DNA from: Reclinomonas americana ATCC 50394 | Taxonomy: Eukaryota | Assembly (NCBI GenBank): GCA_048213135.1 | Contig: PS015009.1 | Span: 1,736,001-1,800,000 of the forward strand | Direction: 5' to 3' | Length of the DNA stretch: 64,000 bases | Part shown: piece after piece, positions 611 through 24,759 of the stretch | How positions within the stretch are numbered: the stretch's first letter is position 1 | Layout: each line of letters begins with the position of its first letter | Program-made: the position numbers and the translations under genes | The notes under the pieces: generated by a model | Database searches by the model: none | What the model saw: the letters and a program-made list of their open reading frames with translations, nothing else | What the model was told of the DNA's origin: nothing

Positions 611-3600
611 TCAGTTTTCGGGTTCTTCTTCCAGGTCGTGCAGGGCAACTGCCAGCCGGTTGTCTTTCACAAAATTGCACCAGTGACAATCTTCCTTGCC
701 GCAACCGGTATAAAAATCACGGGCCTGTATTTTTTGCCATACATCGGTGATCTGCTGTTTAACGGTTTCCATATCTGCCGGGTTGATCACGATCTTTTCT
801 TTCCGGAACTGTTTCTGTTTATCCGGTTCAATAAAGTCAAATTCCGTACTCACCACGTTCCAGTTCTTCTGATCATAATTATCGATCAGTATTTTATAGA
901 AAACGGCCTGGCGCCAGTAGTCGCCCCCATTTGGCATTTTATCATGCGGCGGTTTCATTTTTTGCAGGGCATTGTCTACGTTACCGGTTTTGTAATCCAC
1001 CACATTCACATTCCTGCTGTCAAACTCCAGTTTATCGAGTTTGCCTTTCAGCGGAATATCGTTAAGTATCACCACGCGGATGTTACGTTCTATGGCCACC
1101 ACTTTATTCCAGCTGCCGATGTACTGATCATAGTATGCCGGCAAAATAATGGAACCCTGCTCCATTCTGCGGGCAAAAGCTTCACGGGTGAAGTTCTCCC
1201 GGTGCCGGCGCATATACCAGCTGAAGTCTTCCAGAAGGACATCCGCCGGAGGGAATTCATCATTACCACTCTCCTGCATCTTCCTGAAAAAGCGCTCCAG
1301 TGCAAAGTGAATGGCACTGCCAAATTCGGTAGCTTCGCTTTTGCCTACCGGTATGCGGAGGAGGTTCTTATAATAAAAGCCCAGCGGGCAATCCAGGTAG
1401 TTGTTAAGCGCCGTTACATTCATGGAAAATTTTTCAAGCAGGCCGCTTATAAAATCTGCTTCCGCGGCCCTGATCTCCGGTGCCTGAGCGGTGAACTGCA
1501 GCATGTCGAAAACCGCCAGGTCTGCAGGATCGGTAAATACGATCTCCACAGGTAAGGGCTGTTGTTCCATGATCTCGGCAATGAACATCGAAGGTTCCTG
1601 CTCCCTGCCATCATTGCGGTAGCGGGCATAGGAGATGTATAAATATTTTTCCGCCCGGGTGATGGCTACATAAAATAACCGGCGCAGTTCCTCTTCTTCG
1701 GCGCTTTTGGCGTGTGATTCAAATAAGGTGTCGGGGAACTTATAACCGCCGCCGGGTTTTCTTTTCTTTTCCCAGCCCGATGCCGTTACGCCTGCAAAGA
1801 AAACATGTTCAAATTCAAGACCTTTGGAACCGTGCGCTGTCAGCAGGTTTACGCCTTTATCAGTACCGGATACCTGTACGAGCGGCAGGGCGATACCTTC
1901 TTTTTCCATCAGGTCGATAAGCTGGATAAAACCTTCCAGGTTAAGCGATGGGTTGCGTGCAGTTTCGGATTTAATAAAATCGAAAAGGGCGGTCAGCCAT
2001 TGCATGAGGCTCACTTTTTCAGCGCTCTCCATGATATAGGGCAATAGTCCGCCGTACTGTATCAGCCTTTCAAACAATTCCTGGAGGGTATAGTTGGTTA
2101 CATCACCAATGAGTTTTTCCAGTACGATGCCGGTACTTCGCAATTGTTCATTAATGCCCGTATCAAAAAGGTCTTTGGGCACTGCCGCGGAACGTTCGGC
2201 CAGCAGGCGGCGTATGGAGATCTCTTCATTTTTATATTTCCGGCTGTTCACTTCCACCGTCAGTTTCGCTATCTCGATGGGAGGTATATGATAAAAGTCG
2301 AAGTGCAGTATCTCAAACAGCATTTCATCTCCGCCATACGGGATGTCGTGTTCGGCATTGATGTACCGCAGCAATTGCAATATCTTCCGGATGAAAGGGA
2401 GTTCGAGGATGTTAATGTTGCGTTTGCTGTAAACGGGTATTTTTTTCAACCGAAGGTATTGCGCCAGATCTTCACCATAGCGGTTCTCTTTATAGATAAC
2501 GGCGATCTTTCCGAAAGCGACACCGTCTTTTGTCAGTTGATCGATGCTATTGCAGATATGGGCCATTTCCTCTTTGACCGACTGGTATTCGCGGATGACC
2601 GGCAGGTGTGTCAGCTCATTGATGAGTACATTGGCTGCTACCAGGTCTTTACTCAATCCTTCTATCTGTTTTACCAACCTTTCTTCATTCCGGCTGATGA
2701 GGGCTTTGGATACATCCAGTATAGGCTGCGTGCTGCGGTAATTGCCGGTGAGCACCACGGTGATGAGTTGCTGTTCATACTGGCTGGCAAACTCCAGCAT
2801 ATTTTCCACGTTGGCGCCCTGAAAACGGTAAATACTCTGGTCATCATCTCCCACAACAAAAATGTTGGGCGTTTCCCAGTAACTGATAAGCAGTTGTACC
2901 AGTCGGTTTTGTGTGCCGCTGGTATCCTGGTATTCATCGACAAGGATATACTGGAATTTTTCCTGGTACCCCTGCAGCACGGGTTTGTTCTCCTCAAAAA
3001 CGCGGATCACCCAATTGATCATATCGTCGAAATCGTAGCGGTTACGCTGCCGCATCAGTTGCTGGAAGTGATCGAACTCATTGACTGCCGCCTTTAGCTT
3101 TTCCATTTTCTCCGTCTCTTCGGCGATCTTGTCGGTACGAACATCTCCTTTTTTAAAATTACCTGTAGCCCTTTTGGCCATGTACTCGTCCCGCGTGGGC
3201 AGGTCTGCAATGTATTGCCCGATCTTTTCATTGATGAAATCCGGCGTCCAGCCTTCGCGTTTCATGACAGAAAAGAGCTGGCGCAGGTTATTGATCTCGA
3301 AGTATACATCGCCCCGGTATCTTTTTAACGGGTGGTTTTTGGGAAAACTGTCGATCAGTTGTTTGAACAGTTCGATGCTTTCCAGTTCGGATATGGCATC
3401 GAGGCTGCTCTTTTCGAAAAGGGGCAGGTTATCCTGTATCACATCATTGCAGAATGCATGGAAAGTGTAAATATTCACTTTATAGGCATCGGCGCCAATG
3501 AACTGCTGCAGGCGCCTGCGCATGGCGATGGTGCCCGCGTCGGTATACGTAAGACAGAGTATATTTTCGGGAAGGGCGTCGGTATCGAGCAGTATTTTGC

Positions 3601-3757
3601 CGATGCGTGCCGCCAGTATCTGCGTTTTGCCCGTACCTGGCCCGGCGATCACCATCACGGGACCTTCAATAGTGTCCACGGCGATGCGTTGCTGGGGATT
3701 CAGGTTGCTGTAGGTCTCACTGAATTTTTGTGCTAGTTGCTGGCGGTACTGCGACAT
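611..3757 (-). CDS. ATP-dependent DNA helicase, UvrD/PcrA family, with C-terminal PD-(D/E)XK nuclease domain
   Basis: Walker A AGPGTGKT, DEYQD, VGDDDQSIY, HGSKGLEF and YVAITRA helicase motifs. C-terminal GKLD...VVDYKTG nuclease motif. Start set at MSQYRQ (ATG 3757). Confidence 0.92.
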   Translation of the reverse strand: MSQYRQQLAQKFSETYSNLNPQQRIAVDTIEGPVMVIAGPGTGKTQILAARIGKILLDTDALPENILCLTYTDAGTIAMRRRLQQFIGADAYKVNIYTFHAFCNDVIQDNLPLFEKSSLDAISELESIELFKQLIDSFPKNHPLKRYRGDVYFEINNLRQLFSVMKREGWTPDFINEKIGQYIADLPTRDEYMAKRATGNFKKGDVRTDKIAEETEKMEKLKAAVNEFDHFQQLMRQRNRYDFDDMINWVIRVFEENKPVLQGYQEKFQYILVDEYQDTSGTQNRLVQLLISYWETPNIFVVGDDDQSIYRFQGANVENMLEFASQYEQQLITVVLTGNYRSTQPILDVSKALISRNEERLVKQIEGLSKDLVAANVLINELTHLPVIREYQSVKEEMAHICNSIDQLTKDGVAFGKIAVIYKENRYGEDLAQYLRLKKIPVYSKRNINILELPFIRKILQLLRYINAEHDIPYGGDEMLFEILHFDFYHIPPIEIAKLTVEVNSRKYKNEEISIRRLLAERSAAVPKDLFDTGINEQLRSTGIVLEKLIGDVTNYTLQELFERLIQYGGLLPYIMESAEKVSLMQWLTALFDFIKSETARNPSLNLEGFIQLIDLMEKEGIALPLVQVSGTDKGVNLLTAHGSKGLEFEHVFFAGVTASGWEKKRKPGGGYKFPDTLFESHAKSAEEEELRRLFYVAITRAEKYLYISYARYRNDGREQEPSMFIAEIMEQQPLPVEIVFTDPADLAVFDMLQFTAQAPEIRAAEADFISGLLEKFSMNVTALNNYLDCPLGFYYKNLLRIPVGKSEATEFGSAIHFALERFFRKMQESGNDEFPPADVLLEDFSWYMRRHRENFTREAFARRMEQGSIILPAYYDQYIGSWNKVVAIERNIRVVILNDIPLKGKLDKLEFDSRNVNVVDYKTGNVDNALQKMKPPHDKMPNGGDYWRQAVFYKILIDNYDQKNWNVVSTEFDFIEPDKQKQFRKEKIVINPADMETVKQQITDVWQKIQARDFYTGCGKEDCHWCNFVKDNRLAVALHDLEEEPEN

Positions 3758-4010
3758 TGGGTAAAGATACGATGCAGACCGCGGTGCTGACATAAATTTC
3801 AAATCCGCACACCCCGGAATCAACTATCATTTTTTTAAGGTTTCTGCTGTTTACAAATATTAATTTTTATAAATAAATATTTATTGCAATACGTTTAAAT
3901 TTTATTATATTTATTCTAACGTATACCTAATACACCCTGTGAAACGCCACTTTAGTAAATAAGTGGGTCGCCGAAAACACTTTCAGAGTAGGCAAAAAAA
4001 TCAACATTTT

Positions 4011-4214
4011 ATGGCAACAGTATTGTATGGCGTCGCCATCAGAAATGCATTGGCATCAAAAAACCTGGCTAAGATGAAATCTACAGCCGCCCAGGCCAGG
4101 CAAACGATCGTTGAGCAGGCAGATTTGCATGCTGCTTTGATCAAACTGGAAGATGCGATTGCAAAAATTGAGGCCAAAGCCCCCGCAGCCAAAAAAGCAG
4201 CCAAAAAGAAATGA
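4011..4214 (+). CDS. DUF1843-like (Y-X10-GDL-type) RiPP precursor peptide, 67 aa, with N-terminal LYG motif and Lys/Ala-rich tail
   Basis: MATVLYGVAIRNALASKNLAKMK...LIKLEDAIAKIE fits the DUF1843 pattern (YGVAI..A.AS[GDL]..MK...L..EIAK.E). Lies directly upstream of the radical SAM gene. Confidence 0.8.
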   Translation: MATVLYGVAIRNALASKNLAKMKSTAAQARQTIVEQADLHAALIKLEDAIAKIEAKAPAAKKAAKKK

Positions 4215-4228
4215 GTGAAGGATTGACC

Positions 4229-4259
4229 AGGGTTGCCGGTCATAGCAACCGGCAACCCT
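4229..4259 (+). terminator. Intergenic stem-loop between precursor and maturase (attenuator or mRNA stabiliser)
   Basis: Perfect 12-bp inverted repeat AGGGTTGCCGGT-N7-ACCGGCAACCCT, with only a weak U-tail. Confidence 0.6.
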
Positions 4260-4272
4260 TAATTCAAAAACT

Positions 4273-5703
4273 ATGGACAACAAACCAAGACGATATGATT
4301 TGCCCGAAGACTATGCACAGGCTGTACCCGTTCATGTAGTGTGGGAGACAACACTTGCCTGTAACCTCAACTGCCAGCACTGCGGTTCCCGGGCGGGTAA
4401 ACGAAGACCGGGAGAACTGTCGACTGAAGAATGTTTTGAGATCATCAGGCATCTTTCCATACTGGGTACACGTGAGATAACACTGATTGGCGGTGAAGTT
4501 TTTTTGCGTCCCGACTGGACACAGATCATTGAAAGGATCACCGAATCTGGGATTGACTGTTCCATGCAATCCGGTGCTTTTAACCTGAACCGGGAACGGA
4601 TAGCACAGGCAAAAAAAGCGGGGATCAAAAACATAGGCGTTTCCATCGACGGTTTAAAAGAAGTACATGATAAGGTAAGAGGAAAAAAGAATTCATTTGA
4701 CCATGCGATCAACGCATTGAGACTCCTGAAGGAATTCAACATCATTTCCAGCGTGAACACCGTTATCATGCAGGAAAATAAACACAGCCTGGATGAACTG
4801 CTTGATATTTTCATTGCTGAAGGCATAAAGAACTGGCAGGTGCAGCTGGCGGTAGCTATGGGCAACGCGGTAGATAATGAGCATTTATTGATACAGCCTT
4901 ATGAAATAAAAGACATACAGGACCGGCTCTTTCATCTTTATAACAGGGCGCTGGAACATGATGTCCTGATTCAGCCGGGTAATAATATTGGTTACTACGG
5001 ACCTTATGAGAGCATCTGGAGGCAGGCGGATATGGGCCACTGGAACGGCTGCTCGGCTGGTCATACCGCCCTGGGTATTGAAGCGGATGGAAAGATCAAA
5101 GGCTGTCCGTCTTTACCAACAACTTACTATACAGGCGGCAACATAAGGGAAATGTCGCTGACAGATATCTGGAACCATACTAAAGAATTATCATTTACGC
5201 GTTACCGCAATGCGGATGAATTATGGGGCTTCTGTAAAACCTGTTATTACGCTGATGTTTGTTATGCCGGTTGTACCTGGACGAGCCATGTGCTCTTTGG
5301 TCAGCGGGGCAATAACCCTTATTGCTACCATCGCGTGACGGAACTGGAAAAACAAAACCTGAAAGAAAGAATCGTTAAAACGGCCGGCGGCGATGGCACT
5401 TCCTTCGATCATGGTAAGTTTAAAATAGAAGTAGTTAATGAAGCCGGAGAAGTGGTGGAAACACAGATTGGTAACACGGCGCCTATCGCTGTTCCCAAAG
5501 ACACGGGCTCTTTTCGTATACCCCGCCAGCTAAAGCTTTGCCGTGATTGCAGCAAGCATGTAAAACCGGATGAAGAATTTTGCCCTTTTTGCGACAGCAA
5601 TATCGAGGAAGCCGAACAAAATTACCAGCTCCGCATGCAGGAAATAAACGAGAGCTATGAAGAACTCATGGTGATATTAGATAAGATGCACCATGCAGAT
5701 TGA
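4273..5703 (+). CDS. Radical SAM/SPASM peptide maturase, GDL-motif-peptide-associated / PlpX splicease-like
   Basis: VWETTLACNLNCQHCGSRAG (CxxxCxxC), LIGGE, SPASM cysteines CSAG...GCPSL...CKTC....VCYAGC...NNPYC, and a C-terminal CxxC-x10-CPFC ribbon. Confidence 0.88.
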   Translation: MDNKPRRYDLPEDYAQAVPVHVVWETTLACNLNCQHCGSRAGKRRPGELSTEECFEIIRHLSILGTREITLIGGEVFLRPDWTQIIERITESGIDCSMQSGAFNLNRERIAQAKKAGIKNIGVSIDGLKEVHDKVRGKKNSFDHAINALRLLKEFNIISSVNTVIMQENKHSLDELLDIFIAEGIKNWQVQLAVAMGNAVDNEHLLIQPYEIKDIQDRLFHLYNRALEHDVLIQPGNNIGYYGPYESIWRQADMGHWNGCSAGHTALGIEADGKIKGCPSLPTTYYTGGNIREMSLTDIWNHTKELSFTRYRNADELWGFCKTCYYADVCYAGCTWTSHVLFGQRGNNPYCYHRVTELEKQNLKERIVKTAGGDGTSFDHGKFKIEVVNEAGEVVETQIGNTAPIAVPKDTGSFRIPRQLKLCRDCSKHVKPDEEFCPFCDSNIEEAEQNYQLRMQEINESYEELMVILDKMHHAD

Positions 5704-6241
5704 AGAGAAGATACGCTCAACCGAATTGGCGCTTGATGCAGCAGAACTGACCATGCAATATGGTTTGCAGTCGTTTCAATACGACAGTTCAGAATTTCTT
5801 GTTGAGGTGGGAAAAAACATCAGGCTGGGTCCTGACGATGTATTGTTCGACCTGGGGTGTGGTTACGGTGAATTGCTTTTTTATCTTGCCGGAAAATTCC
5901 CGGCTGCACAATTTACCGGCATCGAAATAGTAAAGGAGCGTTTTGATATAGCTGCGGAAGCTTGTCATCTCCGCCGGGTTAACAATATCCGGTTCATACA
6001 CGGTGATATCCTGAAAGAGGACCTCTCTGCCGGTACCGTGTTTTACATCTTCAATCCCTTGTTTGAATTTCAATACCCGGTTTTGGCCAGGCGGCTGCGC
6101 AAAGTGGCGCGGGAGAAAAAGATCATGCTTATCACTGAAGGGAAAGCCTGTATTTATTTTAACCAGCTTCGGTGGCTGTCGGAAATACGATCGATCGATA
6201 ACGACAGCCTCTCGTGGATGAAGATGTATGAGAGTAAATAA
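5693..6241 (+). CDS. Class I SAM-dependent methyltransferase (DOT1-like motifs)
   Basis: LFDLGCGYG motif I, GIEI, FIHGD and VFYIFNP. Overlaps the radical SAM stop. Confidence 0.85.
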   Translation: MQIEEKIRSTELALDAAELTMQYGLQSFQYDSSEFLVEVGKNIRLGPDDVLFDLGCGYGELLFYLAGKFPAAQFTGIEIVKERFDIAAEACHLRRVNNIRFIHGDILKEDLSAGTVFYIFNPLFEFQYPVLARRLRKVAREKKIMLITEGKACIYFNQLRWLSEIRSIDNDSLSWMKMYESK

Positions 6242-6250
6242 AGCTGATCC

Positions 6251-6907
6251 TTAGCCCGGCATCCTGTTGATGTACTTCTCAATTTGTTTGATCTGGTCAA
6301 CGATCTGAGGGGTAGTGGGCTTATAACTTTTGGCTTTGCGGAAGAACTCTTTGGCAGCGCGAAACTCCCTCTTGTTCATCATAATGGAACAGAGTTGCAG
6401 GTAAGCGGCGGCGTTATTTTCATTATCGGGCAAACCGGCACGGATGGCCTGGCGGATATAACTTTCAGCCTGTTTGATATCCCCTTTTTGCATGGCCAGC
6501 ATCCCCAGCTGCAGTTTATTGGGGCCTTCAGCCTGTTTGGTGAGTGAACCACCACCCAGCGACAGGCTTTTTTTCATATGTGTTTCAGCCGTGTCGTAAT
6601 CCTGTTCCATCATGGCCAGGTTGCCTTTGAGGGTATAGTATACCGAACGAACCGGTTTAATAAGAAGACCCGGGAACCAGATAGAATCCAGCACTTTTTT
6701 AGCGCCTTCCATATCTCCATTTTCCATATGTCCCTGTATAAGACGCATGGGTCCCAGCAGGAAATGACCAACGATCAGTACTACGCCTACCAGGTACAGA
6801 ACGAAGGAAGGCCAGAAGCCGGCCTGCATATGGGTGAAAATGGCCAGGGCCAGTAACAGCAGGCCAATCCACAAACGGTACTTGATGATCGTATTTAACC
6901 ACTTCAT
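6251..6907 (-). CDS. Membrane-anchored tetratricopeptide repeat protein
   Basis: Two N-terminal hydrophobic helices followed by TPR-like helical repeats. Start set at MKWLN, with TATCTTTG promoter element upstream (6929-6936, minus strand). Confidence 0.75.
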   Translation of the reverse strand: MKWLNTIIKYRLWIGLLLLALAIFTHMQAGFWPSFVLYLVGVVLIVGHFLLGPMRLIQGHMENGDMEGAKKVLDSIWFPGLLIKPVRSVYYTLKGNLAMMEQDYDTAETHMKKSLSLGGGSLTKQAEGPNKLQLGMLAMQKGDIKQAESYIRQAIRAGLPDNENNAAAYLQLCSIMMNKREFRAAKEFFRKAKSYKPTTPQIVDQIKQIEKYINRMPG

Positions 6908-7023
6908 GAGCTCAAAAATTTGGGACGGCAAAGATAGGATTTGATTTGATTTCAGGAAAAGCTTACTTTTGCCCTCCCCGAAAAGGGGATGCGGCAGCTA
7001 TTTACATTTTTCCGCATCTATTT

Positions 7024-7186: not shown

Positions 7187-7633
7187 CTATTGTTTCGCGG
7201 GAGCCGCGTCTCTCGGAGTTTTACTTTTGATATTGTTACTTTCCCTGATTTTTAGCGCTGCGCCTTTACCGTAAGGGCAGTAATAATCAATGGCGTCCTG
7301 TGCGGCATTATACGAAAGATCGTATTCCACTACAGTTCCCCTGATAATTACGTTCGCTGTATGATTGTAAAAATCACGGCTGCCATAGCCACCGAAATTT
7401 CCGTACATCACATCGCCGTCATAGGTCCTTAATCCATCCAGGTTCCGGATGATGGTATAGCCATAATTGGTCTCAACTACGTAGTAACCGCAGCTATTAT
7501 TACTATACACTACTTCGCCCCGCTCCTGCGAAAACCAGTAATTATTATTCTCATATACTCTTTCCTTGGCGCAACTGGTAAATAGTGCTGCTATGAGCAC
7601 AGCTACAATTGAATAGGTAAAAATCTTTTTCAT
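7187..7633 (-). CDS. Hypothetical lipoprotein
   Basis: MKK, hydrophobic stretch and FTSC lipobox; 148 aa. Confidence 0.75.
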   Translation of the reverse strand: MKKIFTYSIVAVLIAALFTSCAKERVYENNNYWFSQERGEVVYSNNSCGYYVVETNYGYTIIRNLDGLRTYDGDVMYGNFGGYGSRDFYNHTANVIIRGTVVEYDLSYNAAQDAIDYYCPYGKGAALKIRESNNIKSKTPRDAAPAKQ

Positions 7634-7736
7634 GGTTGTTGGTTTTTAAAATGAATTATAACCATGAGATAGCAAACGACGGGCTAAGTTTGCATACGAT
7701 TTGTTAAAAACAAGCTGGCAGACCCATTGCAGTGAT

Positions 7737-7808
7737 TGGTTTGTGACCCAATAGATAGAATAGGGGTTTTCTAAGCTTATAATATATGCCTGATTCTTGT
7801 AGGAGCTG
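7737..7808 (+). pseudogene. Decayed tRNA-Arg copy
   Basis: Ungapped alignment to 7024-7095 at 48/72 identity (manual count). Stems and the TTC of the T-loop are broken. Confidence 0.7.
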
Positions 7809-8312
7809 CAAAGCGGGAATTAAAAAATCACAAGATTGATGACAGGCAGAGCCGTATTAAAACCATCCTGGGTGATAATCAATAGAGCAAACGTTCCAAT
7901 TGCTGCTATTGCTACTTTGTATAGCGTTACAATTTCATTTTGAGTTATTCCGACGGAAAGCTTGTATCGATGAAGAACGATACCTTATTACGCCTGATAT
8001 GGCACAAAGGAACAGGACTCAAACTGATGTACTACCCCATTGTGGTATTTTTTAAAATGACTTGAATCCTTTATCTTCGCTTTTGAAAACTGTAATAAAA
8101 CCAGCGTTACTCTCCCGCTCCTCTCTTTTACTGTGTTTTCTTCTTCCTTTGAATTTTCTATTGAACAATAATTGCTAATGCAAAGTACTGGATCATTGTG
8201 TAGTAATGCGAAACACATTTGATTCAATATTTCAGAAAATATGGAATTGATGAAATAAGAGCATCTGGCAGATGCATCCTAATAAATGCCTAAATATGGC
8301 GCAGACTGACTT

Positions 8313-9862
8313 ATGAGGCTAAGGTATAACCGTGTACTTCTCTGTATTCTTTCTTTTCTTCCTGTGGCAGTTTTTGCGCAGCGAACAGGCTCATTGCAGC
8401 AACCTGCTCCTGTATCGTCACCTTATGAAAAAGTACTCTCCGCTAAAAAAGACCAGGCCGTAACAAAGGTCAATACCATCAGCGCCAAAACCGACAGTAT
8501 TATCCAAAACATACAGGATGTTCCGGCCAAATACATCACCCGCATCGACAATAAGATTGACAAATACAGCAATCGCATCACCGGTAAAACGGAAAAGACC
8601 CTGGTTAAACTCAGCAAATGGGAAACAAAGATCAAGGGCCTGCTGGAAAAGGTAAGCCCGCAAACAGCGCAGAAACTCTTTGGCAACGACCAGCTCAACT
8701 TCAGCAGCCTGCTGCAAAAAATAAAGGAAGGCAAAGCCGTAGCTGATAATTACAAAGCCAAATACAACCAGTACCGCGACAAACTCAATACCAGCCTGGG
8801 TTACCTGCAACAGCAGAAAGACCAGCTGGATAAAAAACTCATCCAGCCGCTGAACAAAGCCAATCAAAAACTGGACTCGCTGGAAAAAGACATCAGCAAT
8901 GCAGAGTACGTGGAAAACTTCATTAAAGAAAGAAAAAACAATTGATCGATGAAGCGGTAAAATATATCGGCAAAAGCAAGTACCTGCAAAAGATCAACAA
9001 GGAAGCTTACTACTATGTAGAAACGCTGCGCAACTACAAAGAGATCTTCAGCGATCCGGCAAAAGCCGAAGAAACGGCGCTGAACATCCTCAATAAAATT
9101 CCGGCGTTCAAACAGTTTGTACAGCAGAACAGTATGCTCTCCTCCCTGTTTCGCCAGCCGGGCACACCCATCGACCAGTCCAGCCTCGCCGGTCTGCAAA
9201 CCCGCGCCAGCGTACAGTCGCTCATACAGGACCGTATAGTCGCCGGTGGACCGAATGCACAACAGATCATTTCACAGAACATACAGCAAGCGCAGGCTGA
9301 GCTCACCCAGTTGAAAGACAAAGTACTGAAAGCGGGTGGCAGCAACAGCGACCAGGAAATGCCCGACTTCAAACCCAACAACCAAAAGACGAAAACCTTC
9401 AAACAGCGGCTGGAATACAATGCCAACCTGCAGTTTGGTAAGGCCAACAGTTTGCTGCCCGCCACGGCCGACATCGCGTTGAGCATCGGTTACAAACTGA
9501 ACGACAAAAGCATCATCGGCATAGGCGCCAGTTACAAACTGGGTATGGGCCGCATCGACCGGCTGGCCATCAGCCACCAGGGACTGGGACTGCGCAGTTT
9601 CATCGACTGGAAACTCAAGAAGCAATTTTATGTAAGCGGCGGAGTGGAATTCAACCAGAACGCCGGTTTCAAGAATATAGAACAGTTAAAGGATTACAAC
9701 AGCTGGCAAACAGCAGGTTTGGTAGGCATCAGTAAGAAGATCGCTGTAAAAACGAAGTTCTTCAAAGGCACCAAGCTGCAGTTGTTGTATGATGTGTTCC
9801 ACAAGCAACACATACCGGTGAGTCAGCCGGTGTTGTTCAGGGTGGGGTATGTATTAGAATGA
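8313..9862 (+). CDS. Exported coiled-coil protein with C-terminal outer-membrane beta-barrel-like domain, split by a -1 frameshift at about 8933-8939 (ORFs 8313-8945 and 8942-9862)
   Basis: ORF1 has a signal peptide and coiled coil. ORF2 has amphipathic beta strands ending FRVGYVLE. One extra A in the A6 run fuses them as ...IKERKKQLIDEAV... Confidence 0.6.
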
Positions 9863-9889: not shown

Positions 9890-12800
9890 ATGAAAGCAAA
9901 CGTATGCATGTGTTTACTGGCAATGATGTTGTCAGTCAGTATAAAAGCCGGTGCTCAGCAAAATGAGAAAAATATACCGTCGATTATTCCCCCATCCCCG
10001 GAAATGTCCTCACTGGGCAAGTTTATTGAGCAGCCGGTAAGTAAATACACTGGGGTGCCTGAAATTAGTATTCCTGTATATACGATAAGAGAATCCGGTA
10101 TTGAGGTTCCTGTGTCAATCAATTATCATTCATCCGGCATTAAGGTTGAAGAAATGTCTGGATGGGTAGGGCTCGGTTGGTCTTTATCAGCAGGAGGGGC
10201 AATAACCCGTTCTGTAAGAGGGTTGCCTGATGATCTTTTCTCGAAAAAAGCTAATGTGACTATCAGGCAGTATGAATGCAACACATATGAGAATGTGGGA
10301 TACCTGTACTGTGGGGCGGATATTGAGCGTATGTATAATGCTAACTCAATTCATCCCTTTGATTCACTCTGGCAGCTTGACCAAATTAGAAAGGTGGGGA
10401 TGGGAGCAAAGGATGCCGTTCCTGACGTTTTCTATTTTTCCTGCGGCAAGTATTCCGGGGAATTTATGTTTGACAAAATAGGGGACATTAATATTATTCC
10501 CCGGCAAGATTTAAAGATTACACTACAAAGACAGAACGGGAGAGAGATAATAGGTTTTACAATAGTAACACCCGACGGGCTGCAATACAATTTTAATGAT
10601 GTTGAAAGATCGACAATTACATCCAAGGGATACACTTCCCAGGTTACAGCTGATTATGGCTATGGTTCAATACAATATGCTTTAGAACATGACGGTCCTT
10701 TTTTCGGCATGACACATACCTTGTATAATAATTCTGAGTTTATGGATGTCTGTTCCGAGGGAGTAAATCGTATAACCTATAATTCATCATGGCAGCTTAC
10801 CAGTGTTGTTTCATTAAAAAATAATGCAAGGATTGACTTTAAGTATCGAAATGAAAATATTCATACGCAATCATATTCGGGAGAGTCTCTGTTTTGGTGG
10901 GATGAAACAAGAGATGAGACAGCATATAAAACTAGGTCCGCTGCATCTAGTTTTATTAAAACAAAAGTAGTTGATACGATTAAGTGGGCCTCCGGAAAGA
11001 TCATTTTTTATAAGGACGTATCGGCGAGGTTAGATATGGATGGCAGGTTCAACAATAACTATGCCCTTGATAAAATTGTAGTTCAGGATTTTAATGGCGG
11101 AATAATTCAACAGCACAAATTATACCACGATTATTTTACGAGCTTATCTTCCCCGGGTTTTCAGGATATGTCCGGAACAGATTATACTATCTTAAACCGG
11201 GCGTTCCAGAAGCGATTGAAGCTGACGGGGATAATGAAAGACGGATCGGCGCCCTATTTATTTGAATATAATACATCTACCAGCCTACCCCACAGGGCAT
11301 CGTTGGAACAGGATTATTGGGGGTACTATAATGGGAATATGTCCGTTTCAACAATGTTTCCCGTGACATATGAATACCCCGGAGAGTCAGTAAATGATAG
11401 TTCGTTTTATAATTCCACTTTATCATTCTATCCGAGAAATAACTATACCGGGATTCAAAAAATCCATACTAAGCTTACTGTTGACCGGGCGGCGAATGAG
11501 GCTAATGCACAAGCATGGATGTTAAAGAAAATAACATTCCCAACAGGAGGGATGACCCAGCTTTACTATGGTCTAAATGAGTTTTATGTGAGTGGTCAGA
11601 AGCTAAGAGGAGCCGGTCTTAGAATAGCGAAACAGGTTACATCTCCAGACGGGAATTTTCTTGCGACAACAAACATTATAAAGAATTATGATTATCATGA
11701 AAGCGGCCAGATCGTAAGTTTACCACAATTTGCAGCCATCTCTCCCAGCCTGATGTATCATAGAACCTGGTCAGCAGGATTGGGATTGACAAAAGGAAGT
11801 TTTGTCGCCTATGGCAAGGTTTCTGAAATTACGCCACTTGGCAAGGTTACGGAATCATTCTCAACGCCTGCGATGTTTGGAACCTGGAAATATGGAATTT
11901 ATCAAAGACCAATAGTTCAAAGGCTTTATCTCTCATATTATTATTCCACAACAGGCAATTGCTTAACTGTTTTTTCTCCAACCGCAAACTCAGAGTACTA
12001 CCCCAGGCCTGACGCCCCCAATTATGATTGGGCGAGAGGCCTTCCATTGGAAAGTATTACATATGATGCAAATGGCGGGATAAAAAATTGGGTAAAAAAT
12101 TTCTATACGCTAAAGAGTCATGTTAAAATCCCTAATGTCCAGGTAAGTGTTATATATACCGAAATGGAATCAACCGGTGATGGAGGCAATCCTTGCTTCA
12201 CAGGAAAACATTGCTATAATTATACAAGAACTTATAATATTTCCCCATGGATGGTATTGGATAGTACTGTTCAGTATAGTGTAGAAGGGACAGATTCCCT
12301 GATTGTATCTTCAAAACAATTATTTGAAAGCCCTTTTCACTACCAACCAACATCCATTGTAACCAAAACTTCTGATGGCAAAGTATTAATTAATAAATTG
12401 AAGTATGCTCAGGATTATTCAATATCTATGAGCGGGTTGAGCCCGGAAGTTCTGGCCATACAAGTAATGCAAAATAAAGGGATCGTATTACCGGCTCTTG
12501 AATCCTCGTCCTTTTTTAGAAAGGACGGTGTCGAATATTTAAAAGGTGCCACAATAAATACGTTCAAAGTTATTGGTAACGAAAGTATGGTTCTTCCTTA
12601 TAAGAATTATCAGGTGGAGATCAAGAAACCGGCCCTGTCATTTCTGCATTCTACCATTAGCTCCGGGACTCTCCTTGTCGATTCAAACTATAAGGAACAG
12701 CTTCTAATTGAACCATATGATGTGAAAGGAAATGTATTAAGTTATGTTTCCAAGGGTCTCAAGACATCTTTTGTATGGGGATACAACTCTACGTTGCCAA

Positions 12801-13819
12801 TTGCACAAATAGTTGGTGCACCGGTAGAAGAAGTAGCTTATACAAGTTTTGAAGACTCTTATCAAGGGAAGTTTCAGTTTTCAGGATCTATAGTTAATAC
12901 GCTGCCCGTTGTGACTGGCAATTCTTGTTATAACCTTAGTTCCGGAGCAATTTCCTGCACTTTAAATAGTTCACTGACATATATTGTAAGTCTATGGGCG
13001 ACAGGCTTTGTCCAGGTCAATAATTCCAGTCCGGTTAAGACGGGAAGGTCTGTCGGGGGATGGACATATTATGAGTACACGATAAGCGGGACTTCGTTAT
13101 TGAACATTACTGGAAATGGAAATCTTGATGAATTAAGGGTTTATCCTTTTGGAGCATTAATGACTACCTATACATTTAAGCCTCTTACAGGCATAACTTC
13201 AAAATGTGATGCCAATAATCGTATCAGCTATTATACGTATGATTTATTTGGCAGATTAGTATTAGAGCTCGACCAGGATAAAAATATCCTGAAAAAAATC
13301 TGTTACAACTATGCCGGTCAGCCTGTTGATTGTAGCTCACCTTGTACTAATATGACAGCCAACTGGCAAAACACATCAACCCCTCCCCGTTGCCAACAAA
13401 GCAGCCCTTGTATTTACACTGGTTACCAGGAACAGGAGCAAAAGGACATGAACCCCTGCAGTCCTACTTATAACCAGTTACAATGGGTAATGGCCGGTTA
13501 CAATCCATTGTCCTGCCCTGCAGGCACTAATGTTCAGATGACTTATCAAAACTTCTATTATCCCGGTTTCACAGCCACTTACACCAATGCACTTACTGGC
13601 GCTGTGTTTACTTTTCCTGTTCCGGCAACAGGTTCCGGGTTCCTGGGTTGCCTTCCCGCTGGTACTTACTATGTCAATATTGCTAAGCCAGGCAATACCA
13701 CAGTGTTCCTGTTCGGCCTGGGATGTCGCTCTATATCGGGTACTTCAGGTGGAACAAAGATCACAATAAGCGCTACTGCATGTAACCAGGTCAGCATCAG
13801 CCTGGTTAATGGAGAATAA
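9890..13819 (+). CDS. Large exported YD/RHS-associated protein with Cys-rich C-terminal domain
   Basis: Signal peptide; PPSPE..SLGKF...V..YTGVPEISIP...YHSSGIKV...GWVGLGWSL N-terminal motif; QDYWGYYNG; YTYDLFGRL YD repeat; 10 Cys in the last ~170 aa. Confidence 0.8.
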   Translation: MKANVCMCLLAMMLSVSIKAGAQQNEKNIPSIIPPSPEMSSLGKFIEQPVSKYTGVPEISIPVYTIRESGIEVPVSINYHSSGIKVEEMSGWVGLGWSLSAGGAITRSVRGLPDDLFSKKANVTIRQYECNTYENVGYLYCGADIERMYNANSIHPFDSLWQLDQIRKVGMGAKDAVPDVFYFSCGKYSGEFMFDKIGDINIIPRQDLKITLQRQNGREIIGFTIVTPDGLQYNFNDVERSTITSKGYTSQVTADYGYGSIQYALEHDGPFFGMTHTLYNNSEFMDVCSEGVNRITYNSSWQLTSVVSLKNNARIDFKYRNENIHTQSYSGESLFWWDETRDETAYKTRSAASSFIKTKVVDTIKWASGKIIFYKDVSARLDMDGRFNNNYALDKIVVQDFNGGIIQQHKLYHDYFTSLSSPGFQDMSGTDYTILNRAFQKRLKLTGIMKDGSAPYLFEYNTSTSLPHRASLEQDYWGYYNGNMSVSTMFPVTYEYPGESVNDSSFYNSTLSFYPRNNYTGIQKIHTKLTVDRAANEANAQAWMLKKITFPTGGMTQLYYGLNEFYVSGQKLRGAGLRIAKQVTSPDGNFLATTNIIKNYDYHESGQIVSLPQFAAISPSLMYHRTWSAGLGLTKGSFVAYGKVSEITPLGKVTESFSTPAMFGTWKYGIYQRPIVQRLYLSYYYSTTGNCLTVFSPTANSEYYPRPDAPNYDWARGLPLESITYDANGGIKNWVKNFYTLKSHVKIPNVQVSVIYTEMESTGDGGNPCFTGKHCYNYTRTYNISPWMVLDSTVQYSVEGTDSLIVSSKQLFESPFHYQPTSIVTKTSDGKVLINKLKYAQDYSISMSGLSPEVLAIQVMQNKGIVLPALESSSFFRKDGVEYLKGATINTFKVIGNESMVLPYKNYQVEIKKPALSFLHSTISSGTLLVDSNYKEQLLIEPYDVKGNVLSYVSKGLKTSFVWGYNSTLPIAQIVGAPVEEVAYTSFEDSYQGKFQFSGSIVNTLPVVTGNSCYNLSSGAISCTLNSSLTYIVSLWATGFVQVNNSSPVKTGRSVGGWTYYEYTISGTSLLNITGNGNLDELRVYPFGALMTTYTFKPLTGITSKCDANNRISYYTYDLFGRLVLELDQDKNILKKICYNYAGQPVDCSSPCTNMTANWQNTSTPPRCQQSSPCIYTGYQEQEQKDMNPCSPTYNQLQWVMAGYNPLSCPAGTNVQMTYQNFYYPGFTATYTNALTGAVFTFPVPATGSGFLGCLPAGTYYVNIAKPGNTTVFLFGLGCRSISGTSGGTKITISATACNQVSISLVNGE

Positions 13820-13838
13820 ATAATTAAACAAACAATTT

Positions 13839-14378
13839 ATGATACTGACAAAAATATTTACGTGTGTGTTGCTTTCCGCCCTTGCGGTGAACAGCGGCAT
13901 TTATGATTACAGTGTTCCAAAAATAGAAGGAGGCAGTCAATCTCTTGCCGTAGCGCAAGGAAAGAGAATACTGCTGGTAACCCTGCCCACCCAGCATTCG
14001 GCATCGGCGGATTCGCTCCTGTACAGCCTGGATACACTTGCGGCTGCGCACAGCTCTGCATTGGCAGTGTTCGCCGTACCTGCTTATGAAGATGGATACT
14101 CGCCATCTGTAAAGGATGACTTGAAGCAATGGTACCGGTCAAAGCTGGGCAGTTATATCACCATTACTGATGGATTATATACCCGTAAGGCGTCGGCTGA
14201 ACAGCATGATCTTTTCAAATGGCTGACGGACGTAAATCGCAATGGCACATTCGATATGGATGTGGAAGGGCCCGGGCAGCAATTTTTTATTAAAGAGGAC
14301 GGGGAATTGTATGGTATGCTGGTACCCGGAACAAAATTATGGAGCAAAGCAGTGCAGAGAACATTGCGGATGCCATAA
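13839..14378 (+). CDS. Glutathione-peroxidase-like (thioredoxin fold) exported protein lacking catalytic residues
   Basis: IYDYSV..IEG....L....GKRILLV and QHDLFKWLT resemble GPx. There is no Cys after the signal peptide. Confidence 0.6.
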   Translation: MILTKIFTCVLLSALAVNSGIYDYSVPKIEGGSQSLAVAQGKRILLVTLPTQHSASADSLLYSLDTLAAAHSSALAVFAVPAYEDGYSPSVKDDLKQWYRSKLGSYITITDGLYTRKASAEQHDLFKWLTDVNRNGTFDMDVEGPGQQFFIKEDGELYGMLVPGTKLWSKAVQRTLRMP

Positions 14379-14436
14379 AAGAATAACAAGACATTGATTA
14401 TTGAACAAGAATTGTTGGCTGATTAATTTAAATAGT

Positions 14437-17400
14437 ATGAATCACAGAATAAAAAAGGGGATCATCGCCTGGGCAGCCATATGTGCCGTACATATTTCAA
14501 TGGCACAGCGTACTGCACCAGCGGCATATCCATTAGGAACGCCGGTAAGTTTTGTGCGCACATGGGATTTGACCGCCCCGGTGAATGACGGCAACGTGGT
14601 GGACGGTAAATTATTGAAGGATGCCAAAATGACTACGGCCTATGTCGACGGGCTGGGCAGGCCATTACAAACCGTGATCAGGCAAGGTTCTTTATATACA
14701 AAAGGAGGCACGCCAACCGACCTGGTAAGTACTGTGGAGTATGATGAATTCGGTCGTGAGCGGTTCAAATACCTGCCTTATGCAGAAGCATCTGCAAGCG
14801 ACGGAGCTTTTAAAATGGACCCGTTTGCCAGCCAGGCCATTTTTATGAACCAGCAATATGGTACACAGGGCGAAATCTGGTTCTACGGGCAAAACAATTT
14901 TGAAGCTTCGCCACTCAACCGGGTAGAAAAGGCCTTGGCGCCGGGTAACAGCTGGGTGGGCAGCAACAGGGGAACAGAAGCTAAGTATTGGATCAATACA
15001 TCAACCGATAATGTAAGGATATGGACGGTGACAGATGTGTCAGGTGCTTTTGGAACTTATCAGTCTGTGGCTGCATACAACGCAGGAGAGCTTTACAAAA
15101 ATGCAGGGGTAGATGAACATGGCAAACAGGTAATCGAGTTTAAGGATAAAGAAGGAAGGGTGATCCTGAAGAAAGTGCAGCTGACCGCAACCGCTGATGC
15201 AGGTACGGGCAGCGGCTACACCGGCTGGTTGTGTACCTATTATATATATGATGATCTCAGCCGCCTGCGTGCCGTTATACAGCCCGAGGGTGTCAATACA
15301 CTCGATGGCAATGGCTGGTCCTTTTCGGGCAATACCATACTCGATGAACAGTCGTTCCGGTATGAATATGATCAGCGTGGAAGAATGACCAGGAAGAAGG
15401 TACCCGGGGCGGGCGAAGTATATATGGTATATGATAACCGCGACCGGCTGGTGATGACACAAGACGCGAATATGCGCCAGCAGAACCAATGGCTATATAC
15501 CACCTATGATGCTCTGAACAGAATGGTTGCTACAGGCCTCATCACCGATAATAACGGTTTGGCTTATCACCTTAATGCAGCTTACAACAGCACCGCTTAT
15601 CCTAACCTCGCCGGTTACACACCCGACGAGCTCACCCGTGCATTCTACGATGACTACAGCTGGCTGGGCAGCTATGGCAGCCCGTTACCAAATGCTTACA
15701 GCAACAGTTACGACAGTTATTTTTTAACGGCCTCCAACAGTACATGGCCCTACCCGCAGGCCAATGTGCAAAACAACCAGCTACGAGGTGTGGCAACTGG
15801 TTCACGTGTAAAAGTACTGGGAAGCACCACCTATTTGTATACCGTTAGCTTTTATGATGCCAAAGGGCGTTTAATACAGGTGCAGGCAACAAATATTACC
15901 GGCGGGAAAGACATTACTACTACGCAATACAGTTGGGCAGGACAACCGCTGGTACTGGTCCAAAAGCAGGAGAACGCGTCCGGTGCAGGGCAGACATTCG
16001 TTACCATAACCAAAATGACTTACGATGATTTGGGACGGGTGCTCAATATTAAAAAAGCAGTGAACGGCCCTTCTGTAACCAAGCCCGAGAAACTGGTAGC
16101 TGAAATGGAATACGACAAGCTGGGGCAGCTGAAAACGAAAAAACTGGGATTGAAAACCGGTGTTGATGAACCCGTGGAAACACTCAATTATGATTATAAT
16201 ATCCGCGGCTGGATGCTGGGTGCCAACCGCGATTACGCGAAAGACGGGAACAACAGCAATTATTTTGGTTTCGATCTGGGATATGATAAGGCCAATAACG
16301 GCATTATTGGCAACCTTACTTATTCCACCCCTCAATACAATGGCAATATAGAAGGTATGGTATGGAAAAGTAAAGGCGATGGAGAAAAACGTAAATATGA
16401 TTTTACGTATGATGCCACCAACAGGCTTACCGGTGCCGACTTTAACCAGTATACCAGCAGCGGGACCTTTAATAAAACGGCCGGGGTCGACTACAGCCTT
16501 GACAATCTTACTTACGACCGCAACGGGAACATTAAAACAATGGACCAGAAAGGCCTGTTGTTGAATACGAGTAGTTATATAGATAAACTCAGGTATGAGT
16601 ACATACCCGGTACCAACCGGTTGCAGAGTGTGTTTGATGTAGTGAATGACGCCTCCACTAAACTGGGCGACTTCCGGTTTACCAGCGGTCACCCGCAGTA
16701 TGCATTAAAAACTGCCAATACCAGCCCGGCCGGAGTAACCGATTACAATTACGACGCCAACGGTAACATGGTGACCGACTACAATAAGAATATCAAAACC
16801 ACCAGTGGTAACGGTATCGTGTACAACTACCTGAATCTGCCGGCACAGATAACCATGAAAAATGACAATGGTACCGATAAAGGCACTATTGTATATACCT
16901 ACGATGCGGCTGGCAATAAGCTGCAAAAAACGGTAAATGAAACCGGGCAACCTGCCAAAACCACTTTATACCTGGCAAGCGGGGTATATGAAAATAATGT
17001 ACTTCAGTTCCTGGGGCAGGAAGAAGGGCGCATACGCTTTAAACCCGGCGTGAGTTTAACGCCCGCATCATTTGAATATGATTATTTTGTAAAAGATCAC
17101 CTGGGCAATGTACGCATGGTGCTTACGGAGGAGCAGAAAATCGACCAGTATCCGGCGGCTACTATGGAAACGGCTGCCGCAACTACAGAAGAATTGGTTT
17201 ATGCCAATCTCCCGGAAACCCGGACATCCAAAAGCGGGATCACCGGGTACCCGTCGGATAATACAACCAGCCCTAACGATTATGTGGCCAGGGTAAGCGG
17301 GGGAGCCAATGCCGTGGATAAAAAAATAGGCCCTTCCATTACTTTGAAAGTGATGGCGGGAGATATGTTTAACGTAAAAGTGAGCAGCTGGTATAAAACC

Positions 17401-20656: not shown

Positions 20657-21256
20657 ATGATCAAAGAAAGCGTACAAAAAAACAGCTCATTTTCATCTGA
20701 CGAACAACTGAATGCGTTTTACCCTGATGATATACAACAAATGGCCCGTCGTCACTGGACACCCTTGATTGTTGCGCAAAAAGCTGCGGAATTTCTTGCC
20801 ATAGGAAAGAATGTACGGATACTTGATATCGGCAGTGGTGTGGGCAAATTTTGCTTTGGGGCAGCGCGGCATCGCCCTCAGGCATATTATTACGGAATTG
20901 AACAGCGGAAAAGCCTGATCATGCATGCTGAAGCGGCGAAAGAGAAATTATGGCTCAAAAATATATCTTTTATTCACGGCAACTTTACCGCGATAGATTT
21001 CAGGAATTACGACCATTTTTATTTTTATAATGCATTCTACGAAAACCTGCGGGGAACTCCGAAAATAGATAACAGCATCGCTTATTCAGAGCAGCTGTAC
21101 CAGTATTATACTCATTATTTATTCCGGCAATTGCAACAAAAGCCATCCGGCACCCGCCTGGTGACATTTCATAGTATGGAAGACGAAATGCCTTCGGGCT
21201 ACCACCTGTGGGGAGTCGAACTGGCAGGTCTTCTGAAATATTGGATAAAAGAATAG
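20657..21256 (+). CDS. Class I SAM-dependent methyltransferase
   Basis: ILDIGSGVG motif I, GIEQ, FIHGN and FYFYN. Confidence 0.85.
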   Translation: MIKESVQKNSSFSSDEQLNAFYPDDIQQMARRHWTPLIVAQKAAEFLAIGKNVRILDIGSGVGKFCFGAARHRPQAYYYGIEQRKSLIMHAEAAKEKLWLKNISFIHGNFTAIDFRNYDHFYFYNAFYENLRGTPKIDNSIAYSEQLYQYYTHYLFRQLQQKPSGTRLVTFHSMEDEMPSGYHLWGVELAGLLKYWIKE

Positions 21257-24084: not shown

Positions 24085-24759
24085 ATGAAAATACTGGTCA
24101 TTGAAGATGAAGCGGGACTGGCACAAAGCATAATCACTTATTTATCAGGTGAGCAGTACCATTGTGAACTGGCTGCCGATTTTGCAACGGCCCTGGAAAA
24201 GATTGACCTGTACGATTATGATTGTATCCTGCTTGACCTGATGCTGCCCGGTGGCAAGGGGCTTGACCTGCTGGCCGAGATCAAAAGGTTGAATAAGGAA
24301 GACGGTGTGATCATTATCTCTGCCAAAGACTCCTTTGATGATAAGATAGAAGGGCTTCGGGTAGGTGCCGATGACTACCTGGCCAAACCCTTTCACCTGC
24401 CCGAACTGGCAGCGAGGATATATTCGGTTATCCGCAGAAAAAAATTCACCAACGATAATATAGTACAGCAGCATGAACTCAGAATCGACCTGCTGGCTAA
24501 AACGGCAACTATAAATGATGTGGCCGTGGCGCTTACAAAAAAGGAGTTCGACCTGCTGTTGTACTTTGTCAGCAACAAAAACAGGGTGATCTCTAAAAGC
24601 ACGCTGGCAGAGCGGCTTTCCGGCGACATGGCCGATATGTTCGATAACCACGACTTCATCTACGCACACATCAAGAACCTGAAAAGAAAGCTTTCCGAAG
24701 CGGGCTGCCCGTCTTATTTGAAAACACGCTATGGTACAGGGTATAAATGGGAAGTATGA
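24085..24759 (+). CDS. OmpR/PhoB family response regulator
   Basis: ILVIED, LLDLMLP, GADDYLAKPF and winged-helix C-terminus. Confidence 0.95.
   Translation: MKILVIEDEAGLAQSIITYLSGEQYHCELAADFATALEKIDLYDYDCILLDLMLPGGKGLDLLAEIKRLNKEDGVIIISAKDSFDDKIEGLRVGADDYLAKPFHLPELAARIYSVIRRKKFTNDNIVQQHELRIDLLAKTATINDVAVALTKKEFDLLLYFVSNKNRVISKSTLAERLSGDMADMFDNHDFIYAHIKNLKRKLSEAGCPSYLKTRYGTGYKWEV

Follow-up and report, generated by a model that had tools for sequence, protein, structure and literature searches.

The stretch analysed here, 64,000 nucleotides of the Reclinomonas americana ATCC 50394 assembly GCA_048213135.1 (contig PS015009.1, positions 1,736,001 to 1,800,000 of the forward strand; hereafter the window, with positions counted from its first letter), contains a cassette of three genes, all on the plus strand, which spans positions 4011-6241 and encodes a small DUF1843 protein, a radical S-adenosylmethionine (SAM)/SPASM enzyme and a SAM-dependent methyltransferase. 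The cassette belongs to a recurrent, rare Bacteroidota clade within the radical SAM systems of the DUF1843 / Y-X10-GDL type, whose sister group is formed by the PlpX tyramine spliceases. Its elements, followed by the two flanking genes, are:

3824-4010 (187 nt), plus strand: AT-rich intergenic leader, probable promoter region (from G+C content)
4011 (ATG) to 4214 (stop), plus strand: precursor, a leaderless DUF1843 protein of 67 aa (PF08898)
4229-4259, plus strand: hairpin in the spacer between the precursor and radical SAM genes (inverted repeat, folding energy)
4273-5703, plus strand: radical SAM/SPASM maturase, splicease-like, 476 aa (PF04055, PF13186, TIGR03913)
5693-6241, plus strand: class I SAM-dependent methyltransferase, aKMT/DOT1-like, 182 aa (Pfam, PDB profile, Foldseek)
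611-3823, minus strand: UvrD/PcrA-like helicase, upstream flank
6251-6931, minus strand: tetratricopeptide repeat (TPR) membrane protein, downstream flank

These positions agree with a preliminary description of the same DNA, made from its letters, in which three tightly linked and co-oriented genes, with an overlapping methyltransferase, had been placed between a helicase and a TPR gene and behind a very AT-rich leader. The G+C content is 0.30 over 3800-3999 versus 0.43-0.52 within the cassette, and no foreign-island signature was obtained from the base composition of the cassette region. The methyltransferase and radical SAM genes share 11 nt, an overlap by which the former is translationally coupled to the latter, and a spacer of 58 nt separates the stop of the precursor from the start of the radical SAM gene. 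A PorY-family sensor kinase of the type IX secretion system in the window (24747-26027; 395 bits, cutoff 350) and the nearest relatives of the radical SAM enzyme, which are from Bacteroidota, are in line with a Bacteroidota origin of the DNA, as had also been proposed.

The radical SAM enzyme shows the PF04055 (100.4 bits) and PF13186 (37.7 bits) domains, with the CxxxCxxC motif and the SPASM domain with seven auxiliary-cluster cysteines that characterize the radical SAM/SPASM superfamily. Cysteines 30/34/37, 260, 278, 321, 324, 330, 334, 351 and 423/426/437/440 are invariant in 12 members of the clade. Among NCBIfam models, the best match corresponds to TIGR03913 (GDL motif peptide-associated maturase), with 542.9 bits over residues 2-456, followed by TIGR04103 (nif11-class peptide radical SAM maturase 3, PlpX type), with 431 bits over residues 21-385 only, while the next radical SAM/SPASM family gives 169 bits. 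The assignment of the enzyme to the TIGR03913/PlpX splicease group in the preliminary description is in line with these results, the two models being by far the best, and the three motifs given there (VWExTLxCNLxCxHCGSRAG, GIEADGxIKGCPSL and GNNPYC) are all present. The C-terminal extension of the enzyme, approximately residues 386-476, consists of a CxxC...CxxC zinc ribbon and a terminal helix; because TIGR03913 reaches residue 456 and TIGR04103 ends at 385, these last approximately 90 residues constitute a feature of the GDL-type branch.

At X-Tyr-Gly, spliceases cut out a tyramine equivalent and connect C1 of X with C1 of the former Tyr, which results in an alpha-keto-beta-amino residue (PMC9811515, PMC11414181). 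The signature of splicing is the loss of C8H9NO, -135.06 Da (PMC11626197, PMC9811515). Type I enzymes (PlpX/PcpX) have a Y protein and type II enzymes (RhaX/RasX) lack it. Leu-Tyr-Gly is spliced in RasA (PMC11626197) and has been named as a native PlpXY site (PMC10533398), and the Gly of X-Tyr-Gly gives no atoms to the new bond (PMC9811515). The genetic hallmark of a spliceotide, an X-Tyr-Gly precursor encoded beside a splicease-like radical SAM enzyme, is found in the cassette, where the site is L5-Y6-G7. The resemblance to tyramine spliceases thus includes a radical SAM/SPASM enzyme with TIGR04103 as its second-best model, the same Leu-Tyr-Gly site as in RasA and PlpXY, and a binary organization without Y protein, as in the non-cyanobacterial types (PMC11414181). 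However, the score of the enzyme is 431 versus a TIGR04103 cutoff of 725, the substrate is leaderless, so that the recognition part would follow the site, and the system has the additional approximately 90-residue zinc ribbon/helix in the enzyme, a methyltransferase partner and a reaction that is predicted only. By analogy, the zinc ribbon/helix may act as the leader helix or the Y protein does elsewhere.

When the distribution of the enzyme was analyzed, 7035 of 8000 scored candidates were related to it at E <= 1e-20, and a pattern scan with one genome per species gave at least 67 confirmed loci in Pseudomonadota, Acidobacteriota, Bacteroidota and other phyla. DUF1843-like open reading frames (ORFs) adjoin the radical SAM gene in 66 of 68 loci (the 67 listed and the window; iterated profile search), the exceptions being L055 and L059. 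In an enzyme tree of 71 rows, with five truncated rows (< 400 aa) excluded and six distant Bacteroidota radical SAM/SPASM paralogues as outgroup, the window enzyme groups with nine Bacteroidota rows, including Flavobacterium, Mucilaginibacter and a Crocinitomicaceae bin. A branch with a Shimodaira-Hasegawa-like approximate likelihood ratio test (SH-aLRT) value of 100 divides this clade from 55 other GDL-type enzymes, among which the Saprospiraceae locus L043 is located. The nine related clade loci, among the loci listed, are L001-L005, L013, L057, L074 and L076, and the only public names of clade members are 'radical SAM/SPASM domain-containing protein' and 'DUF1843 domain-containing protein'.

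An orthologue of the methyltransferase (approximately 40% identity, E 1e-37 to 1e-44) is found directly after the radical SAM gene in eight of the nine clade loci, and its start lies between -13 and +5 nt relative to the end of that gene. Co-occurrence was evaluated in 401 evenly sampled Bacteroidota genomes, one of the three positives being the centre genome of the sample. Radical SAM orthologues (approximately 60% identity) were present in three genomes, and six more had only paralogues with 33-36% identity. The methyltransferase profile gave matches at E <= 1e-82 in exactly the same three genomes, beside the radical SAM gene; the next best match was 5.9e-21, and 17 of the 401 genomes reached 1e-10. 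Since both genes appear in the same three genomes, the system is rare in Bacteroidota and the radical SAM enzyme and methyltransferase travel together. That the methyltransferase is part of the cassette, as previously suggested, is therefore sustained by the neighbourhood survey and by the genome sample. The genes located after the cassette in the scanned clade loci encode a family-2 glycosyltransferase in L001 and L002 and correspond to no family in L004. L001 (Flavobacterium sp. PS2; 7619-8536) consists of two precursors and the radical SAM gene, with the glycosyltransferase at +194 nt. Other tailoring genes were observed in the downstream position next to GDL-type radical SAM genes, encoding another SAM methyltransferase (L009), a carbamoyltransferase (L010) and a B12-binding radical SAM protein of approximately 676 aa (L047), and ORFs of similar size occupy the same place in L052 and L063.

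The precursor begins with M-A-T-V-L-Y-G from the ATG at 4011. The list of ORFs places its start at GTG 3963, but ATG 4011 is the likely start, because the starts of homologues lie no more than a few residues from the Tyr and a copy in L001 has the first seven residues identical; the 67-aa peptide starting with MATVLYG that had been proposed is thus supported. PF08898 (DUF1843) matches the protein with E 5e-13 and 49.9 bits, above the gathering cutoff of 23.3, in agreement with the DUF1843 / Y-X10-GDL type advanced in the preliminary description. Profile positions 2-52 (of 52) correspond to residues 5-55, so that the domain begins exactly at Leu5. L5-Y6-G7 is the sole Tyr-Gly site of the precursor and is preceded by only four residues. 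The name Y-X(10)-GDL, as used in NCBIfam/TIGRFAM, presumably stands for Tyr, 10 residues and Gly-Asp-Leu. In an alignment of the window copy with 23 Bacteroidota homologues, Tyr6 and the 10-residue spacing are retained, and positions 17-19 are K-N-L where the family has GDL and most clade relatives have N-D-L. The AlphaFold2 model of the precursor (mean predicted local distance difference test, pLDDT, 72) consists of three helices at 2-16, 19-33 and 37-56, with L5-Y6-G7 at the start of helix 1, K17-N18 in the first turn and a second turn at 34-36, just before Q-A-D-L.

The leaderless layout is found throughout the clade, whose other precursors have 55-58 aa and the site at residues 5-8; the window precursor adds a Lys/Ala-rich C-terminal tail. 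Clade loci carry one to three short leaderless DUF1843 genes, and no further DUF1843 ORFs were found in the 64-kb window with a profile from 24 Bacteroidota precursors. The single precursor with a methyltransferase had been considered a possible undescribed variant; the single copy stands, but it is the low end of this range, and the cassette is a member of a recurrent Bacteroidota clade and not a one-off. The leader plus protease or exporter of classical leader-dependent peptides that are made on ribosomes and altered post-translationally (RiPPs) were not found in the cluster: the precursor has no N-terminal leader or double-Gly site, and, in agreement with what had been described, Pfam/NCBIfam scans identified no protease or exporter families among the next genes on either side of the cassette and no DUF1842 adjoins it.

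Compared with the TIGR03913 GDL-type systems, the cassette shares the best enzyme model, including the zinc-ribbon extension, the DUF1843 gene directly upstream, and the conserved Tyr with its 10-residue spacing to the turn motif. It differs in that the enzyme is below the equivalog cutoff and in a separate clade, in having clade precursors of 55-67 aa, without DUF1842 and with the site 5-7 residues from the N-terminus, and in the replacement of GDL, by N-D-L in most clade relatives and by K-N-L in the window. In addition, the proteobacterial GDL-type loci examined lack a dedicated aKMT/DOT1-like methyltransferase, except for a distant homologue in L058. In Proteobacteria, DUF1843 is fused to DUF1842, a folded beta-barrel for which there is a crystal structure (PMC10994174), and the DUF1842/DUF1843 operon of Chromobacterium and Burkholderia is induced by quorum sensing or in stationary phase (PMC12114271, PMC12322963). 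By analogy, this induction would fit a physiological rather than an antibiotic role, with nothing that bears directly on the window clade.

Several variations in precursor organization were observed among the loci. A Lys-rich C-terminal tail is present in the window precursor (4176-4211) and in two of the three Saprospiraceae (L043) copies, and Pyrinomonadaceae precursors (L006-L008, L010, L011, L050 and L061) have a Lys/Ser/Thr-rich N-terminal extension before Tyr-Gly. Paralogues inside one locus differ at the site, being of a Pro/Met-Tyr-Gly type or of a Leu-Tyr-Ala type (L002-L004, L057, L074, L076 and L013), and in one L013 copy His replaces the site Tyr. The same holds for many proteobacterial loci, where, by crude motif calling, Pro-Tyr-Gly predominates in the short copy of a trio and Leu-Tyr-Ala in the DUF1842 fusions. 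Substrates of Lysobacteraceae and Undibacterium carry two or three DUF1843 domains in tandem within one protein (L021, L028, L039, L041, L042, L044, L046 and L049), and the Undibacterium-type loci (L039, L041, L042, L044 and L046) have a second DUF1843 gene 3' of the radical SAM gene.

The methyltransferase matches the Pfam families Methyltransf_25, Methyltransf_31 and DOT1 (30.0 bits, cutoff 23). With the NCBIfam aKMT equivalog it gives 35.6 bits versus a cutoff of 200, and generic methyltransferase models score higher. The top PDB matches of a 12-sequence profile were 5fa8, an aKMT (E 3.9e-12), 9ne1, a bacterial DOT1L, and 5jwj (aKMT), while further matches were for the most part N-methyltransferases, joined by some RNA methyltransferases and cyclopropane fatty-acid synthases. 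The AlphaFold2 model (mean pLDDT 90) gave 5fa8 (6.1e-10), 5bxy and 9ne1 as top matches with Foldseek; 5bxy is labelled as an RNA methyltransferase, and the MrsA alpha-keto acid C-methyltransferases occupy rank 10 among the fold matches. The protein resembles archaeal aKMT (aKMT4) and DOT1 in its best profile and fold matches and in having a minimal class I fold of approximately 160-190 aa, but differs from them in sequence, with an identity of approximately 18-20%, and in its predicted substrate, a small protein of RiPP-like character. The Asn of a Y/F-N-P-L-F/Y motif located after strand 4 is nearly invariant, and we take this motif to be similar to the (D/N)PP(Y/F) and NNF motifs of amino-methyltransferases. 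Our best guess, based on sequence and model comparisons, is that the enzyme N-methylates a protein side chain. The predicted complex of methyltransferase and precursor had a score of 0.02 (mark 0.34), a value that, with no folded controls beside it, counts neither for nor against binding. A word-index search with the single methyltransferase sequence returned three relatives, a number limited by the index, and the Atlas search generic methyltransferase clusters only. Distant homologues are located near GDL-type radical SAM genes in L066, L043 and L058, upstream and on the opposite strand in L066 and L058.

The hairpin at 4229-4259, with a perfect stem of 12 bp and a loop of 7 nt, takes up the spacer of 58 nt that separates the precursor from the radical SAM gene. 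It folds with a minimum free energy of -26.8 kcal/mol (z -5.9), and none of 200 shuffled sequences folded as well. A hairpin in the same spacer was found in 10 of 10 clade loci (-16.4 to -26.8 kcal/mol), followed by a U-run in Flavobacterium, while four spacers between precursor copies gave only -9.5 to -10.9 kcal/mol. The differences of relatives at 4239-4248 are almost all in the loop (4241-4247), the stem being touched only at the closing pair. The element is likely an attenuator or a transcript-stabilising structure. Such hairpins are the usual means by which precursor mRNA is kept in excess in RiPP operons, and this one probably has the same effect.

With respect to transcription, a scan for sigma-70 promoters and terminators gave no more sites than expected by chance, one sigma-70-like site being located at 3884-3911. 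RNA-library contigs of a relative with approximately 96% identity (two runs of one study) start at 3938 and 3945 and cover the cassette, while contigs from DNA runs extend further upstream of these positions. This is a weak hint of transcription, with a 5' end approximately 70 nt ahead of the start codon, against which it counts that DNA carry-over is possible in the RNA contigs and that they come from a single study. The loose end of one RNA contig near 3938-3945 resembles a sequencing adaptor. In one RNA run the short contigs of the precursor had a word depth of 1295-4810 versus 223 elsewhere in the cassette, a measure that cannot rank genes and is not taken as evidence.

Taken together, these data make us favour, with moderate confidence, an operon that would post-translationally modify a small protein, by formation of a ketoamide at Leu5 through tyramine splicing and N-methylation of the same protein, the product of which would remain a small protein. 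The radical SAM/SPASM enzyme would cut a tyramine equivalent from Tyr6 and rejoin the backbone, converting Leu5 into an alpha-keto-beta-amino (ketoamide) residue; this excision at L5-Y6-G7 is the most likely reaction, on grounds of family resemblance. Recognition might be provided by the folded DUF1843 helices, and perhaps by the zinc ribbon/helix of the enzyme, instead of a leader or a Y protein. The aKMT/DOT1-like methyltransferase would then N-methylate the precursor, most likely at Lys, with Gln or the N-terminus as other possible positions. Given that the cassette has neither a leader nor a linked protease or exporter, the product probably stays as a small folded protein that would carry its electrophilic warhead at a distance of four residues from the N-terminus, and a cleaved and secreted peptide would be improbable.

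Several results weigh against this explanation. The radical SAM enzyme is below the equivalog cutoffs of TIGR03913 (591.75) and TIGR04103 (725), and so are, for TIGR03913, four of the four other clade members tested (518-539 bits), while six of six non-clade GDL-type members tested gave 610-1049 bits. Given that members score below the TIGR03913 cutoff and non-members above it, the clade constitutes a sister subfamily unnamed by the NCBI model, and since the window enzyme scores under both curated cutoffs, function is being transferred across a subfamily boundary. The search with hidden Markov models proposed in the preliminary description was thus positive for PF08898, whereas TIGR03913 and TIGR04103 gave strong scores that remained below their cutoffs. 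The precursor does not have the literal Y-X(10)-GDL, with K-N-L in its place, and many DUF1843 paralogues at other loci have Tyr-Ala at the site, and a few of them His, which departs from a strict X-Tyr-Gly. The comparison of precursors with and without a methyltransferase at the locus singled out no residue as methylation target; Gln28 and Gln36 are typical of the clade and K21 is frequent, in a comparison confounded by phylogeny. The L001 genome has no match to the window methyltransferase at E <= 1e-5, and since this locus has precursors and radical SAM gene without one, the methyltransferase appears dispensable for the core reaction. In the literature on DUF1843, PF08898, DUF1842 and GDL we found no link to splicing, and no experiment on any DUF1843/GDL-type pair was found in literature that did not cover Scott et al. 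(2022; Chem 8:2659). According to papers citing that work, 939 systems were predicted and 27 tested, with types defined by the enzyme tree and the precursor. No description of the clade was found either, and the survey of Scott et al. may already list it.

Some of these facts could also be explained if the enzyme acted on the conserved Tyr of DUF1843 by other chemistry, for example cross-linking, modification at C-beta or epimerisation, without formation of a ketoamide. The position of the enzyme under both equivalog cutoffs, the Tyr-Ala and His site variants among paralogues, the C-terminal extension of approximately 90 residues outside the PlpX-type model and the absence of experimental data in what was found on GDL-type members are all compatible with this possibility, which we consider unlikely, although of some weight. 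The PlpX-type TIGR04103 is nevertheless second at 431 bits, with other radical SAM/SPASM families at 169 or less, the exact Leu-Tyr-Gly of RasA (PMC11626197) and PlpXY (PMC10533398) is kept, and, as Gly contributes no atoms to the new bond (PMC9811515), Tyr-Ala need not exclude splicing. The methyltransferase, in turn, might act elsewhere, on the excised tyramine-derived by-product, on the radical SAM enzyme itself or on RNA. This would be consistent with a target residue that was not singled out and a fold that by itself leaves the substrate unfixed, with the clade locus that has no methyltransferase (L001), and with the RNA methyltransferase label of the close structural match 5bxy. Strict co-occurrence and translational coupling with the radical SAM gene, the fact that the nearest characterised relatives are protein lysine N-methyltransferases, and the carbamoyltransferase, B12-binding radical SAM protein or other methyltransferase found at the same position elsewhere, which fits peptide tailoring, make this alternative very unlikely.

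The fate of the product can also be interpreted in a different way, as a classical secreted RiPP in which, after modification, a short fragment, N-terminal or other, would be released and exported by a protease and a transporter whose genes lie at another place in the genome. Processing genes apart from the cluster are frequent among RiPPs, and the warhead would be just four residues from the N-terminus. Spliceotides count as RiPPs, and some have exporters of the peptidase-containing ATP-binding cassette transporter (PCAT) type (PMC10885120). However, the neighbours on either side have no protease or exporter family, the genes downstream in the scanned clade loci (glycosyltransferases in L001 and L002, no family in L004) are not proteases or exporters, and the precursor lacks a leader or a double-Gly site. 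DUF1843 is moreover predicted to fold as three helices and is fused to the DUF1842 beta-barrel in Proteobacteria (PMC10994174). In view of this, secretion is distinctly improbable, and a modified small protein that is retained remains our preferred explanation.

A more elaborate form of this preferred explanation, which is a long shot in its entirety, would be that the folded three-helix mini-protein, with a Leu-type alpha-ketoamide at the end of the N-terminal tetrapeptide, works as a gene-encoded, protein-borne reversible covalent protease inhibitor or as an electrophilic handle that is not secreted, with methyltransferase chemistry new to this class of RiPPs. Within it, one option would be an N-methylation that tunes the mini-protein, and a bolder one a C-methylation at the beta-carbon of the ketoamide, which is enolisable and whose configuration would thereby be fixed. 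The zinc ribbon/helix of the enzyme would then be, by analogy, what nature has in place of the splicease-helix fusions made by engineering (PMC11414181). Spliceotide ketoamides are known to inhibit Ser and Cys proteases (PMC11626197).

Backbone beta-amino ketoamides are known to arise in ribosomal products only through spliceases, which are under development for protein engineering and for the discovery of protease inhibitors (PMC11414181, PMC10533398, PMC11626197). Splicease-related radical SAM maturases whose substrates are of the DUF1843 / Y-X10-GDL type are an already known kind of system; the clade described here is set apart by enzymes that fall outside the curated model, by minimal precursors without a leader, by a dedicated aKMT/DOT1-like methyltransferase and by a conserved attenuator-like hairpin. 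It would offer a natural system of great compactness, in which the leaderless substrate has approximately 55-67 aa and the site is beside the N-terminus, an enzyme that may bring its own activating element and a dedicated methyltransferase predicted to act on the spliced protein. It would also connect the DUF1843 proteins, which are annotated in numerous Flavobacterium genomes and have long lacked an explanation, with a concrete, testable modification. If the enzyme does not splice, the clade would mark a functional boundary of the splicease family.

Other features were noted in the rest of the window. The PorY-family kinase forms a pair with an OmpR-type response regulator at 24085-26027 (plus strand). 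A 1468-aa DUF6443/RHS-repeat protein is encoded at 14401-18804 (plus strand), preceded by an ORF of 1309 aa at 9890-13816 (plus strand) for which Pfam gave no family at E <= 1e-5 and NCBIfam none at E <= 1e-30; the region 9890-18804 has the appearance of a locus of polymorphic-toxin type, without relation to the cassette. Finally, a second small class I methyltransferase of 199 aa is encoded at 20657-21253 (plus strand), 14 kb away from the cassette and beside a Crp-family regulator, and shows a distant similarity to the cassette methyltransferase (34% identity over 94 residues).

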